This document shows, piece after piece, positions 205 through 14,580 of a stretch of 64,000 nucleotides of DNA. The notes under the pieces were generated by a model. It had not been told where the DNA came from. It saw nothing but the letters and a program-made list of their open reading frames with translations, and searched no databases. The translations under genes and the position numbers were made by a program. The number at the start of each line of letters is the position of its first letter. Position 1 is the first letter of the stretch. This DNA comes from Oscillospiraceae bacterium. GTDB taxonomy: Bacteria > Bacillota > Clostridia > Oscillospirales > JAAYXM01. Where the stretch lies: positions 439-64,438 of the forward strand of contig JAFSIZ010000050.1 of NCBI GenBank assembly GCA_017439555.1, written 5' to 3'.

Positions 205-1287
205 TTATTCTTCGGTTTTAGGTGTGCGCTTTAAAAAATCAAAATAGCCCCATTCATAGAATTGCTTTATAAGAGCTATCGGAATCGGCATGAACATACC
301 GATGATGCCGAACATTTTGAGCCCGACATACATTGATATCAATGTGACGAGTGGATGCAGACCAATGTGTTTGCCGACGATTTTCGGCTCTAAAATATTT
401 CTGACAATGAGAACGACTATATAGATTACGATAAGACCTATAGCAAGGACATAGTTCTGCATACACAGCGCGACAATTGCCCAGGGGCCGAGCACCCAGC
501 CTGTGCCGAGAATCGGCATCGCATCGATAAGCGCGATGACAGCGGCGAGGAGAATTGCGCCCGGCACACGGAGCACTGCAAGCCCGATGGCAAGCTCAAC
601 AAAGGTGATGCTTATAAGAACGAGCAGGGCGCGGAGATAGCTGACGAGAGTGGTAGACACCTGCTCGCGCGTCTGGCGATAGCGGAGCCTCCATTTCATA
701 GGCGTTATGTCGGCGAGCTTTCTGCGGAGAAGCCTATAATCGCAGGCGAGAAAATATGTCGAGACAATGGCAGCTATGACAAAAAGGATTATCGAGGGGA
801 GTGCAGTTGCAAGGTTGGTCGCAGAGGTAATCATCGGCCCGATAAGATTCTGCAGCGCAGATACGAGATCAGAAAGCCAGGCCTCAACATTGCTGTAGAT
901 AAAGTCCTGTGTTTCGAGCGGAAGGCGGGAAAGGACATTCACAAAGGTGTCATTGAGCTTTGCAACGACAGCGTTTATATTGAGCGCACGCAGATGCTCG
1001 AATATATCAACCAGCCCGTTGACGACGGCGGAGGCGACAAAATAGAAAACTGTGCAGATTATGCCATAGAACAAAACTGTGAGAAGCCCTGCCGCAAGCG
1101 GCCGCGGAAAGCGGAGCTTTTCTTTCAGAAAATCTGTCGGTTTTTCGATTATCTTTGAAGCGACAAATGCGATAATAAACGGGGCGAACCACTTCAGAGC
1201 ATATTTAAAAACAAGCCACACAGCGAGAGCGCCGAGCGCAATATAGAGAAGTGTGAGAAAAAAACGGACGTGCTTGCTGTATTGCAT
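205..1287 (-). CDS. ytvI: Sporulation integral membrane protein YtvI (AI-2E transporter family)
   Basis: 360 aa, multiple TM segments, PFIIAF N-terminus, DAMPILGTG and RNILEPKIVGKHIGLHPL motifs. Confidence 0.9.
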   Translation of the reverse strand: MQYSKHVRFFLTLLYIALGALAVWLVFKYALKWFAPFIIAFVASKIIEKPTDFLKEKLRFPRPLAAGLLTVLFYGIICTVFYFVASAVVNGLVDIFEHLRALNINAVVAKLNDTFVNVLSRLPLETQDFIYSNVEAWLSDLVSALQNLIGPMITSATNLATALPSIILFVIAAIVSTYFLACDYRLLRRKLADITPMKWRLRYRQTREQVSTTLVSYLRALLVLISITFVELAIGLAVLRVPGAILLAAVIALIDAMPILGTGWVLGPWAIVALCMQNYVLAIGLIVIYIVVLIVRNILEPKIVGKHIGLHPLVTLISMYVGLKMFGIIGMFMPIPIALIKQFYEWGYFDFLKRTPKTEE

Positions 1288-11323: not shown

Positions 11324-12101
11324 CAATCTCCTCCATTTTCATATATTTTTCAAGCTCGGCAGGCGTAAGCGTTGAGAGCTTGTCCATAAGCTTTGCGGAA
11401 AACGTACCGCAGCCAAGCTCCGATTCGGAAAGCTCTCCGCAAATTCCGAGAAAAGCGCAGGCGTGAGCCGCGGCGGTGATGCTTTGCGATTCTGTGAGAA
11501 AACACGCGACAGCCGCGCCGAGCATACACCCCGAGCCTGTGATTTTACCGAGCTGCATACAGCCGTTGCTGATATGTATCATTCTCTTTCCGTCGGTTAC
11601 GATATCGGTTTTTCCGCTTGCGAGGATGATGCAGTTGTGTTTGCGGCTAAGCTTTATTGCACAGGTGCTTATTTCCGGGACGGTGAGAGAAGAGTCTGCA
11701 TCCACGCCGACCCCGAGATATTCAGCATCATACAGCGCTTTTATTTCGGAATAATTGCCCTTCAGGACTGTCGGCGTGTGTGTTTTTAAAAAATCATATA
11801 CAAAGCCTCGGCGAAGGGAGGAGCAGGCAACTCCGACTGCATCGAGGACAATGGGAATGCTGCTGTGCGCGGCCTCATCCGCTGCAAGCGGAATGGACTC
11901 CATTCTCGCATCTGTGATATTGCCGAGGTTGAGGAGAAGGGAGGCAGAGGTGCGCGTTATTTCACGCACCTCCGCCGGATGCTCCGCCATTATAGGGCGG
12001 CATCCGATTGCAAGAATAAGATTTGCACACTGGTTTATCGATATCGGGTTTGTTATGCAATGGATAAGAGGTTTTCTTTGTCTGATAATTTCATGAATCA
12101 T
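11307..12101 (-). CDS. thiM: Hydroxyethylthiazole kinase
   Basis: PLIHCITNPIS, PIMAEH, LDAVGV, KGNYSEI, ITGSGCMLG. Confidence 0.93.
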   Translation of the reverse strand: MIHEIIRQRKPLIHCITNPISINQCANLILAIGCRPIMAEHPAEVREITRTSASLLLNLGNITDARMESIPLAADEAAHSSIPIVLDAVGVACSSLRRGFVYDFLKTHTPTVLKGNYSEIKALYDAEYLGVGVDADSSLTVPEISTCAIKLSRKHNCIILASGKTDIVTDGKRMIHISNGCMQLGKITGSGCMLGAAVACFLTESQSITAAAHACAFLGICGELSESELGCGTFSAKLMDKLSTLTPAELEKYMKMEEIDVENL

Positions 12102-12615
12102 AGCTTTTTGTTCCTAACTTTTCCTGAAATTCTGAAAGTTTTCCGTTTCGTGTGAGGGCTTTGAGCAGAAGGTAAGCGATGCTTCCTCCGATGAGCGTGC
12201 CGCCAATGAAGGACGGGACATAAAACAGCCAGGTGAGCCCCTCCTTGCCCCAGAAATATGTCATAACGGGATATGAGAGGATTGCGCCGATGATTCCTGT
12301 GCCGATAATCTCGCCAATAACAGCGAAAATGAGCTTGCCGCGAGAGAGTCTGTATAGCACACCGGAGAGAAAGGCTCCGAATATGGCACCTGTCAGCGCG
12401 ATTGGCGGAATGCCCATCAGCACCATTCTTATTATGCCTATAAGAAGTGCGCACAGAAGCGAATACCACGGCCCGAGAAGTACGGCACACACGATGTTTA
12501 TGAGGTGGGCCATCGGGCACATTCCCTCAACACGCAATATCGGCGATATGACAACGCCGAGCGCCACAAGCACCGAAAGCACAATCATCTTCAAAAATTT
12601 CCTTGAGTTGTTCAT
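12091..12615 (-). CDS. thiW: ECF transporter S component ThiW (thiazole)
   Basis: PMAHLINIVCAVLLGPWY, GEIIGTGIIGA; hydrophobic; first gene of the thi operon. Confidence 0.9.
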   Translation of the reverse strand: MNNSRKFLKMIVLSVLVALGVVISPILRVEGMCPMAHLINIVCAVLLGPWYSLLCALLIGIIRMVLMGIPPIALTGAIFGAFLSGVLYRLSRGKLIFAVIGEIIGTGIIGAILSYPVMTYFWGKEGLTWLFYVPSFIGGTLIGGSIAYLLLKALTRNGKLSEFQEKLGTKSYDS

Positions 12616-12626
12616 TTGTTTTTCCT

Positions 12627-12754
12627 CGTTTCATAATTTAAATACGAAGTCAATGAAACGGCTTCGCTCGGTCGGAACTCAAAAGCTCCCTCTCACCCCG
12701 AAACACGGGTTCCCTCGCAACAGTATACGGACGTCAAGCGCTCCCTTGCCGCCC
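12627..12754 (-). ncRNA. Second structured leader RNA: truncated TPP-like aptamer (P2/P3/UGAGA/P3a only) with flanking hairpins
   Basis: Sense strand UUGC-GA-GG-GAA-CCCG(uguuu)CGGG-G-UGAGA-G-GGAGC(uuuuga)GUUCC-GA-CC-GA-GCGA; 5' hairpin GGGCGGCAAG/CUUGACGUCC; 3' hairpin CGUUUCAU/AUGAAACG next to the thiW RBS. Confidence 0.55.
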
Positions 12755-12782
12755 GGTAAATACGCCTCCTTTCGTGTGAAAT

Positions 12783-12816
12783 AAAAAACGGACAGTCCCG
12801 ATAAGGACTATCCGTT
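12783..12816 (-). terminator. Riboswitch-controlled intrinsic terminator
   Basis: Sense AACGGATAGTCC-TTATCG-GGACTGTCCGTT-TTTT just downstream of the TPP aptamer. Confidence 0.85.
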
Positions 12817-12833
12817 ATAAACTGAGCTCAATA

Positions 12834-12920: not shown

Positions 12921-12936
12921 TTTAATTGTCGAGGAT

Positions 12937-13041: not shown

Positions 13042-14580
13042 ATGGAGCTGGGACTTGAAAAGCGGAGAACCGGGAGATATACAGAGCAGTTTTCGGGCGG
13101 CGCGGTTTATGAAGAAAATACAGAGATGATAGTGCCGGATAATAGCCCCGATGTCCTGAGAATAATCAAAGGATGCGCAAATGTGTTTTTAAAGGACAAG
13201 AGCTCCCGCGATGGCAAAACGGACATAAGCGGTATGGTGAAAGGCGCGGTGCTCTATGTCGCGGAAGGGGAGCGTGGATTGCGCAAGCTCGATATATCAA
13301 TGCCGTTTGCATATGTGCTTGACACCCCGGGCGTCACGCCTGATTCAAAGCTCGTGGTTGTCGCGAAGCTGCGCTCGATTGACGTGCGCGAAATAAATCC
13401 GCGCAAGATATCCGTAAGAGCAGGCATCGACGTAGCAGTGCGCGCATATGGCGAGGTGGAGCTTGAGCTGTGCGCGGATGTGAACGATGCGGATAAATAC
13501 GGTGTGTGCGTGAGAAAGACTGTTGTTTCGACATATAGCCCGATAAATCTCAGGGAAAAGAGCTTCATCGTCAGTGATGATATAGAGCTTTCGTCGAAGG
13601 AATGTGATATGGCGCAGATTCTTGTGTGTGATGCGGCTCTTGTGCCCGGTGATACGAAGATAATCGGCAATAAAGCGATAGTCAAGGGCAATGCCGGGAT
13701 TACCTACATATACGCGCTTGAGGACGGTGAGATCGCGTGCGGAGAATATGAGCTTCCGTTTTCACAGATAATTGATATTGACGGAATGGACGAATCAAAC
13801 GACCTGCGCATCGCGCTCAATGTAACGGGAATAGAGCTTGATCCGCAATACGATGCTTCTGGCAAGGCACGCTATATGACGGCGAGCATAGCTGCGACAG
13901 CTGTCGCCGAGGTGTTTGAGCTGACGGATATCGAATCTGTCAACGATGTCTACAGCACAAAATATGAGCTTTCCGTCGCCAGCCGCGATGTAAGCTGCAA
14001 GAGGCTTTGCGACAGAAAGGAAAAGCGCGTCGCGGTAAATGAAACAGTTGAGACGGGAATGGGAATCAAACAGGTGCTTGATGCGTCCGTAAATCTGATG
14101 CCGTGCACGCGCCGCCGCGAAGAAGGTGGCGAGGTGCTCGGATGCGATGCCGCAATTTCTGTAACGTATATAGGTGAGGACGATGGTGTATACAGCGCAA
14201 CGCGCCGCACTGCGGCAATATGTCCGCTTCCGTTGAATTCAAACCTTTGCTATGACGTCAGAAGTGAGGTGCGCGGCAAGAGCTTTTCCGTCGGCGCAGG
14301 CAACGAAATAAATGTACGCTTCTTCACGGATTTTGACATCACCGAAACCGAAGAAATCGCAGTGCCGGCCATTTTGTCGATAGAAGCAGATCCCGAGCGC
14401 GAACGCCGTGACCGCGACACGCCGAGCGTGATCGTCAAGCGGCTTGATTCCGATTGCGATATATGGAGTCTTGCAAAGGAGTATGCGACAACTGTTGAGG
14501 AGATAAAGCTTGCAAATGATATAACAGAGGACATAACACTCTCCTGCGGAAGAATGGTGCTCATTCCGCGGAAGAGATAA
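13042..14580 (+). CDS. sipL: Spore coat morphogenetic protein SipL-like (SPOCS/DUF3794 domains + C-terminal LysM)
   Basis: EMIVPDNSPDV, REINPRKI, KIIGNKAIVKG, LPFSQIIDI, DVYST; C-terminal IWSLAKEYATTVEEIKLAN LysM. Confidence 0.8.
   Translation: MELGLEKRRTGRYTEQFSGGAVYEENTEMIVPDNSPDVLRIIKGCANVFLKDKSSRDGKTDISGMVKGAVLYVAEGERGLRKLDISMPFAYVLDTPGVTPDSKLVVVAKLRSIDVREINPRKISVRAGIDVAVRAYGEVELELCADVNDADKYGVCVRKTVVSTYSPINLREKSFIVSDDIELSSKECDMAQILVCDAALVPGDTKIIGNKAIVKGNAGITYIYALEDGEIACGEYELPFSQIIDIDGMDESNDLRIALNVTGIELDPQYDASGKARYMTASIAATAVAEVFELTDIESVNDVYSTKYELSVASRDVSCKRLCDRKEKRVAVNETVETGMGIKQVLDASVNLMPCTRRREEGGEVLGCDAAISVTYIGEDDGVYSATRRTAAICPLPLNSNLCYDVRSEVRGKSFSVGAGNEINVRFFTDFDITETEEIAVPAILSIEADPERERRDRDTPSVIVKRLDSDCDIWSLAKEYATTVEEIKLANDITEDITLSCGRMVLIPRKR

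Follow-up and report, generated by a model that had tools for sequence, protein, structure and literature searches.

Thiamin pyrophosphate (TPP) riboswitches are the most widespread riboswitch class, and the element considered here follows one of them in an Oscillospiraceae bacterium (assembly GCA_017439555.1, contig JAFSIZ010000050.1), where it occupies the leader of ~165 nucleotides (nt) between the terminator of that riboswitch and the gene thiW; we call the whole stretch of DNA that was analysed, 64,000 nt of this contig, the window. One of the closest described arrangements is the tandem of a TPP riboswitch with a riboswitch for hydroxymethylpyrimidine pyrophosphate (HMP-PP; the thiS motif), which was demonstrated before thiW of C. 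lundense (PMC6478431), and of which PMC9481103 lists 131 in its Table 2 and gives 28 examples in its text. There too the second sensor comes after the TPP riboswitch and its terminator and before genes of the thiazole branch (thiW, thiS, thiM), but the HMP-PP aptamer is a small hairpin within a terminator and a transcriptional ON switch, whereas our element combines a TPP-like arm with a hairpin that we call X, is not accompanied by its own terminator in the window, and is predicted to control ribosome binding, probably turning translation OFF. Two thiamin-type sensors also stand in series in TPP-TPP tandems. In addition, PMC9481103 states, citing unpublished findings, that some RNAs classed as TPP riboswitches prefer thiamin or thiamin monophosphate (TMP); these variants may or may not include our element, which fails the TPP model, whereas they are described there as members of the TPP class.

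Comparison with other genomes inclines us, with modest confidence, to regard these ~165 nt as an independent second cis-regulatory sensor, a variant riboswitch derived from a TPP aptamer that would act as a translational OFF switch, and it is probably an undescribed one. No family of Rfam 15 covers the element in our scans of the window and of the relatives' loci, and it was called as RF00059 (the TPP riboswitch) at the gathering threshold in none of 34 relatives' loci scanned, the element of a typical relative (L096) giving no sense-strand match to the TPP model even at E-values up to 10. Our literature search found no description of it; subscription journals and the supplementary alignments of PMC6478431 and PMC9481103 lie outside that search and may bear on novelty. 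With RF00059 the element has in common the arm made of P2, P3, the UGAGA loop and P3a, the downstream thiamin genes and, in most relatives, what appears to be a three-way junction with P1. Unlike RF00059 it is without the P4/P5 pyrophosphate arm, and it scores 12.4 bits against a cut-off of 54.3; its P3 loop (UGUUY) is invariant, UGAGA is preceded by an additional G, hairpin X has been added upstream of P1, and its third arm is variable, with insertions of ~220 nt possible, and sometimes missing altogether.

The sense strand of the thiamin locus is the minus strand, and RF00059 was the sole Rfam family to reach its gathering threshold across the whole window, as a full-length TPP aptamer at 12927–12821 (−) with 68.5 bits. 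This first sensor is followed by an intrinsic terminator at 12787–12816 (−), recognized in a terminator scan by a 13-bp stem and T-run, with the U-run reaching to ~12780, and thiW (PF09512, E-value 2.6e-48) lies at 12091–12615 (−) with its start codon at 12615. When aligned permissively, RF00059 extends over 12726–12606 (E-value 6.1): P2, P3, UGAGA and P3a match, the pyrimidine-sensor helix corresponding to model positions 11–57, and 26 model positions of P4/P5 are skipped, with 38 unrelated bases standing in their place. A search of all Rfam families at E-values up to 10 across 12560–12830 returned only this TPP match and a terminator-like match to sbrA. An earlier note on this DNA, made from its letters and translations, had pointed to a repeat of the 5' half of the TPP aptamer, without P4/P5, between the terminator and thiW; every pairing that it named is present in the minus-strand sequence, and the full coverage by an Rfam family that would have refuted its proposal is lacking in these scans. 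The terminator scan of 12780–12615 revealed none belonging to the element, no internal promoter was found within the window's element, and no terminator-embedded hairpin of the HMP-PP type was encountered there, although the presence of the thiS motif among the 4227 Rfam families is not confirmed.

A BLAST search with the 175-nt leader against 60 relatives identified matches in 13 other genomes, all with E-values of 3.3e-8 or lower, and the 14 leaders of the window's family were aligned (alignment A1). The invariant blocks of A1 are Box5 (a Shine-Dalgarno (SD)-like purine box, GAAAGGAGG, at 12765–12773 (−), directly after the terminator and without a start codon behind it; six of its nine positions are invariant in the 14 family members), the hairpin X loop GGAGCG, GCGA, GGGAAC, the P3 loop UGUUU, GGUGAGAG, ACCG and the ribosome-binding site, and RNAalifold predicted 28 pairs, 18 of which are preserved through changes on both sides. 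A covariance model built from A1 (R1) scored 130–166 bits in 14 of 32 family genomes, our own included, and everything else there, ordinary TPP aptamers among it, scored 34 bits or less. Over 151 genomes of the order, R1 recovered the element in our own genome, in one congeneric genome and in a genome from a different family, where the match is genuine (L063, 76.7 bits); a fourth match (G040, locus L064, 40.9 bits) proved to be an ordinary TPP aptamer and was dropped. We also scanned one genome per species with a 25-letter degenerate core pattern, which gave at least 119 stretches, and took 80 of these as loci. By eye 79 of the 80 are the element, and R1 agrees (42.6–144.5 bits among the matches listed); the other, L144, had no R1 match and was dropped as a chance match within unrelated sequence. 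By record title, and again among the matches listed, the carriers include Oscillospiraceae, Ruminococcus, Faecalibacterium prausnitzii, Gemmiger, Flavonifractor, Intestinimonas, Lachnospiraceae, Mediterraneibacter, Veillonella, Dialister, Faecalibacillus, Floccifex, Hathewaya and Clostridium oceanicum, and Veillonellaceae and Erysipelotrichales are represented besides Oscillospiraceae, Lachnospiraceae and Faecalibacterium. The element is thus carried by numerous gut Clostridia.

From 76 distinct cores we built a second model, R2, and searched with it an even sample of 150 other genomes of the class; seven of these had matches at 72.9–96.2 bits, with no match between 40.2 and 72.9 bits. This gap and the seven matches indicate that the element is a separable family, present in ~5% of the class sample. 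Six intermediate matches (35.3–40.2 bits) that we checked with Rfam proved to be ordinary TPP aptamers, and several belong to TPP-TPP tandems. In the true TPP-TPP tandems met here both copies score 61–72 bits with Rfam, unlike our element; such ordinary tandems are found in other Clostridia at L192, L193, L194 and L123, the last of them 1.5 kb upstream of a copy of the element.

In the window thiW is the first gene of an operon which, by Pfam families, runs thiW-thiM-thiE-thiD-permease-thiamin pyrophosphokinase, the genes downstream of thiW encoding hydroxyethylthiazole kinase, TMP synthase, HMP(-P) kinase, a cytosine/purine-type permease and thiamin pyrophosphokinase. An open reading frame (ORF) was called behind the element in 79 of 86 contexts, and 64 of these ORFs have ThiW-type N-termini (of three subtypes), three are ThiM and 12 are odd or mis-called. 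Of ten representatives searched with Pfam, eight are ThiW (among them L069, L079 and L132, which had counted as odd), one is ThiM (L114) and one is ThiF (L084), and ThiW is downstream in six of the seven loci from the class sample, the remaining one (L190) being unparsed. The element thus precedes ThiW almost always, and otherwise ThiM or thiS-thiF. At L084 a short thiS-like ORF appears by eye to come first, ahead of ThiF, and at L188 the called thiW start is 321 nt past the core, with ~250 nt of extra sequence between aptamer and start. The only other TPP riboswitch of our own genome precedes a thiamin transporter gene (PF09515) and is without the second element; that locus (L002, contig C171, 3–1611 (−)) encodes the YuaJ-type transporter, then a DUF2752 protein, then a TM2/zinc-ribbon protein.

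Directly behind a TPP aptamer stand 56 of the 79 loci (54 by regular expression, plus L107 and L133 by Rfam), with a T-run between the TPP aptamer and the element in 49 of the 54; in five others (L079, L090, L100, L123 and L136) the TPP aptamer is 1.3–3.7 kb upstream, and 15 of the 79 have no Rfam TPP match in the locus sequence at all. Excluded from this tandem count were L085 (too little upstream sequence), L065 (its only TPP match is downstream) and L073 (its only TPP match is on the opposite strand). At L071 a promoter-like sequence (TTGAGG, 17 nt, TATACT) lies right before hairpin X by eye, which indicates that the element can stand alone, without a TPP aptamer. Some loci are unusual in other ways. 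At L142 (170–620 (+)) there are apparently three sensors, a TPP aptamer, the element (R1 match 309–466) and, by eye, a TPP-like aptamer with CUGAGA and a P4/P5-like 3' half; at L012 of genome G031 (1652–2140 (−)) an insertion of ~230 nt apparently separates the 5' half of the upstream TPP aptamer from the P4/P5 half, and Rfam makes no TPP call there. A Gut-1 RNA (RF01706, 54.2 bits) at L077, 155–238 (−), is on the opposite strand directly upstream of the element (276–363 (+)) in a locus without a TPP aptamer, and a RAGATH-18 RNA (RF03064, 73 bits) occurs at L141, 2871–2935 (−), a locus with a tandem of TPP aptamer and element.

The conserved core includes hairpin X (12728–12755 (−)), in which a 6-bp outer stem, a purine-purine mismatch and a 4-bp inner stem carry the loop GGAGCG (12744–12739). 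It is followed by the segment S5, UUGCGA (12715–12720 (−)), which holds the 5' strand of P1 and the junction GA and whose GCGA is conserved class-wide in A1 and in the alignment A2 described below, and then by the TPP-like pyrimidine-sensor arm (12670–12714 (−)), which is defined by the sub-threshold TPP alignment and by covariation. In this arm P2 pairs GG 12714–12713 with CC 12671–12670, P3 pairs CCCG 12709–12706 with CGGG 12700–12697 around the loop UGUUU, the T-loop UGAGA is at 12695–12691 (−), and P3a pairs GGAGCU 12689–12684 with AGUUCC 12679–12674. For the covariation analysis we aligned 76 distinct rows with MAFFT (A2) and counted ten pairs in hairpin X, two in P2, four in P3 and five in P3a; left out were L065, L082, L091, L109 and L118 (insertions between X and S5), L069 and L140 (without a clear X), L108 and L141 (contig end) and L115 (a variant X loop missed by the regular expression). 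In A2 95.4% of cells pair, against 78.0% in shuffles, and 17 of the 21 pairs are changed on both sides: nine of ten in hairpin X, three of four in P3 and all five in P3a, the first pair of P3 being G-C in 46 rows, C-G in 27 and U-A in three. The covariation score of 0.551, against 0.207, was reached by none of 500 shuffles, and sliding the partners by 1–3 columns gave 0.157 at most. P2 is invariant and therefore neutral on structure, and invariant single-stranded letters include UGAGA with the G preceding it, GGGAA before P3, the P3 loop UGUU(U/C) and the G, A, G and C of the X loop. Compared with the TPP aptamers of the same loci, the element has A opposite G where these have a base pair adjoining the T-loop, and its P2 is cut to two G-C pairs with G.A/A.G or U.G after them. 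By eye, GAGC of the X loop looks complementary to GUUY of the P3 loop, as if the two might kiss; both are invariant, so that no covariation signal could arise, and we set this contact aside as conjecture.

Beyond the variable arm, most relatives have a distal segment with which the letters preceding GCGA pair, forming helices of up to 12 bp whose outer pairs vary by genome. A contiguous P1 anchored at GCG with a score of at least 7 was present in 30 of 78 sequences, compared with 3.7% with shuffled downstream sequence and 7.4% with non-cognate partners, and at a score of at least 9 in 15 of 78, compared with 0.6% and 1.4%, respectively. Most relatives appear to form a three-way junction from a covarying P1 and a variable arm. 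This third arm, which separates P2 from the P1 3' strand, shows neither conserved sequence nor the letters of the TPP P4/P5, and ranges in length from 0 to ~236 nt; the insertions at L074 (236 nt) and L124 (219 nt) keep a 9-bp P1 on both sides. The window's family has a reduced form, with the P1 3' strand GCGA directly after P2, so that the candidate closing stem joins UUGC 12720–12717 to GCGA 12667–12664 across tandem G.A. The earlier note had read this stem as an extension of P2; the pairing is there and fits the family (89.3% of A1 cells pair), with no change on both sides to attest it. Its separate 5' hairpin is present as well, as hairpin X, and belongs to the conserved core. The term 'half aptamer' holds in that the TPP arm is kept and P4/P5 is gone, but it misses that the core also contains X, with its invariant GAGC-containing loop, and in most relatives P1 and an arm. 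The interpretation of the note is supported in part: a separate and conserved TPP-derived element keeping the UGAGA pocket is borne out by the conservation and covariation of these homologs, which also exclude decay.

Downstream of the core, the conserved expression platform is a triple of boxes: A (GCGAAG, 12662–12667 (−)), which contains the P1 3' strand GCGA and is itself SD-like; B (CUUCGU, 12644–12649 (−)), an anti-SD box complementary to the thiW ribosome-binding site as well as to A; and that site (SD) itself, ACGAGG (12624–12629 (−)). In A1 the A:B helix pairs in 92.9% of cells with four of six pairs changed on both sides, and its covariation score (0.452 against 0.231) was matched by none of 500 shuffles. 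As A overlaps the P1 3' strand, P1 and A:B are mutually exclusive. P1 together with B:SD pairs in 87.9% of A1 cells, against 65.9% at most when slid. Among the 31 sequences with a clear P1, the best partner segment of the 3' part of the aptamer overlaps the best partner of the SD region in 26, and the mean pairing energy of cognate partners is −16.1 kcal/mol, compared with −11.8 for non-cognate and −10.3 for shuffled partners; the partner boxes can be seen by eye to shift together between genomes. In short forms the P1 3' strand contains the start codon (L068) or abuts the SD (L085, L097 and L069), again by eye. With the core arms forced, the best fold of the window has P1 and B:SD at −44.4 kcal/mol together with a start-codon helix, and the A:B state is at −38.4 kcal/mol. 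In this fold the start-codon helix is a 6-bp pairing of 12657–12652 with 12616–12611 over the AUG. It is as private to the window as the 8-bp hairpin, CGUUUCAU (12660–12653) with AUGAAACG (12634–12627), that the earlier note had placed at the ribosome-binding site: neither start-site pairing is conserved in A1, and the 5' arm of the 8-bp hairpin falls in a gapped and variable region of the alignment, so this part of the note does not stand as a conserved feature. Overall, the element has a structural hallmark of a riboswitch, a conserved aptamer with covarying helices joined to a variable, overlapping expression platform.

What the comparisons show is conservation, covariation (of X, P3, P3a and A:B and, class-wide, of P1), the association with these genes and the complementarity of the three boxes; ligand binding, the direction of switching and any choice of ligand are inferences from there. 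Going by the anatomy, we think it likely that closure of the aptamer turns translation off. The predicted ligand core would consist of the retained P2-P3-UGAGA-P3a arm and the new hairpin X, P4/P5 being gone. Only transcripts that escape the TPP-dependent terminator would carry the element; on these an occupied core would close P1 (UUGC:GCGA in the window), which would release box B to pair with the thiW ribosome-binding site and shut translation off, and with an empty core A would pair with B, leaving the site free and translation on. The TPP switch and the element would then give OFF/OFF control, and a NOR gate if their ligands differ. The two-input control proposed in the earlier note is to this extent plausible, as the element follows a complete TPP riboswitch with its terminator.

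Several observations weigh against a TPP-derived translational OFF switch, or against parts of that reading. Folded by itself, the element of the window shows no advantage over shuffled versions (z 0.07), and the argument therefore depends on other genomes. Within our own family P1 with B:SD is compatible with the alignment, with 0 pairs changed on both sides and shuffles doing equally well, and covariation is confined to the A:B state. Forcing or blocking the aptamer in a calculation of SD accessibility does not discriminate (33 of 48 unchanged, nine more paired, six less paired), and the purine and pyrimidine boxes of the platform pair promiscuously, which permits other pairings, including those of an ON switch. 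The four runs recorded as, or guessed to be, RNA contain 0.04 of the sampled words each, too small a share to serve as RNA evidence. An end-product ligand would leave unexplained both the restriction to the thiazole branch and the absence of the element before thiT. Finally, the known second sensor before thiW, the HMP-PP riboswitch, is an ON switch according to PMC6478431. We weighed an ON switch for HMP-PP (or HMP-P or HMP), which would be a second structural class with the function of the thiS-motif riboswitch. Translation of thiW would then be limited to conditions of low TPP in which the pyrimidine half awaits thiazole, and X would be a phosphate site nearer the pocket than P4/P5. Position and genes are as in the tandem TPP/HMP-PP system (PMC6478431 and PMC9481103), every letter of the UGAGA pocket is kept, and the element goes with thiazole-branch genes only and is absent before thiT in its own genome. 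For the switch itself this explanation would rely on Box5, which would capture the anti-SD box once the aptamer folds. By regular expression, 50 of 77 loci have a Box5-like box upstream of their hairpin X, and a search for a leader peptide behind it found no conserved start codon. Sequences immediately behind Box5 tend to pair with the box behind P1: for such a long-range helix (P0), joining the stretch that precedes X to the one that follows P1, energies were −23.5 against −19.0 kcal/mol, a modest cognate advantage, and a second test gave −17.3 kcal/mol for cognate partners against −14.1, with the cognate partner in the top three in 10 of 32 cases; we keep P0 as a possibility and not as a finding. 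Box5 might thus be part of an outer closing helix, an anti-SD decoy (which would favour the ON switch) or a stabilizer that binds ribosomes like STAB-SD, whose letters it presumably resembles. Against the ON switch, the three-box layout and the short forms put the P1 3' strand on or beside the start site, as in an OFF switch, Box5 is nearly invariant in the family where B varies with A, and it is found in only those 50 of 77 loci. On balance we consider an HMP-PP ON switch unlikely.

An OFF switch for the thiazole product, hydroxyethylthiazole phosphate (HET-P) or hydroxyethylthiazole (HET), would provide feedback on thiazole import and phosphorylation, with the thiazole ring held in the T-loop pocket and the phosphate by X. 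It would fit the OFF architecture and the exclusive association with ThiW, ThiM and thiS-thiF, and the surroundings of the pocket do differ from those of TPP aptamers in the extra G before UGAGA and in A.G for the G-C pair below. Nevertheless the element keeps all the letters that we take to be the aminopyrimidine contacts of TPP aptamers, and we know of no precedent for recognition of a thiazole by a TPP-type fold; we rate this explanation as improbable. The same low probability applies to a structured leader that binds no small molecule and serves as a module for stabilizing or processing the mRNA (Box5 acting against a 5' exonuclease) or as a binding site for a protein. Box5 does resemble an SD strongly although no start codon follows, and SD-like 5' stabilizers that block RNase J1 are known in Bacillus, the STAB-SD of B. 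thuringiensis cry3A being an SD-like leader box that does not start translation and looks similar to Box5 (PMC4113751). However, stability alone leaves the invariant T-loop pocket, the X and P3 loops, the covarying P1 and the anti-SD logic unexplained. To a functionless, decaying duplicate of the upstream TPP aptamer we give almost no credence: a BLAST match of 85–88% over 29–34 nt between the 5' half of the upstream aptamer and the second element in six relatives is consistent with an origin by duplication, but the element is conserved across many families with compensatory changes, it occurs in 15 loci that have no TPP aptamer, and its own models score it at 72–166 bits against 40 or less for true TPP aptamers. 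The R1 matches, the covariation over 76 sequences and the R2 matches in the class together refute decay.

Returning to the variant riboswitch that we favour, the candidate ligands are drawn in different directions by the evidence. As all pocket letters are kept, a compound with an HMP ring is argued for; the OFF layout would suit a product (thiamin, TMP or TPP), or else HET-P; and the restriction to the thiazole branch, together with the precedent of the TPP/HMP-PP tandem before thiW (PMC6478431), argues for HMP-PP or HET-P. Our first choice, a tentative one, would be a thiamin-family compound (thiamin, TMP or TPP) recognized through its aminopyrimidine ring without a pyrophosphate helix. HMP-PP and HET-P are live alternatives, a ligand of the HMP type being possible if doubtful and one of the HET-P type unlikely, and some other ligand, or none, is less likely again. 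The phosphate-blind sensor of HMP or thiamine proposed in the earlier note is accordingly one candidate among several. Whether the element might form a distinct class for a thiamin-pathway metabolite other than TPP (thiamin/TMP, HMP-PP or HET-P, for the last of which no riboswitch is known to us and none turned up in our literature search), with the pyrimidine-sensor helix of TPP aptamers joined to a hairpin that replaces the pyrophosphate arm, is a question on which we come down a little short of even. As a further observation on the neighbourhood, a gene divergent from the thiamin operon (13042–14580 (+)) encodes a 512-residue protein with SipL/SPOCS domains (PF12673).

If our reading is right, the element would be part of a natural two-input gate on thiazole uptake, found in about one in 20 of the sampled Clostridia genomes and also in Faecalibacterium prausnitzii, and it would add a second control point to the salvage of thiamin precursors in abundant gut anaerobes. 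Current Rfam-based pipelines leave such leaders of ~165 nt unlabelled. A common derivative of the TPP riboswitch in which one ligand pocket is retained and the other exchanged would illustrate how new specificity arises in aptamers. If the ligand is not TPP, the metabolite sensed would be a new one, and so would the natural logic gate.

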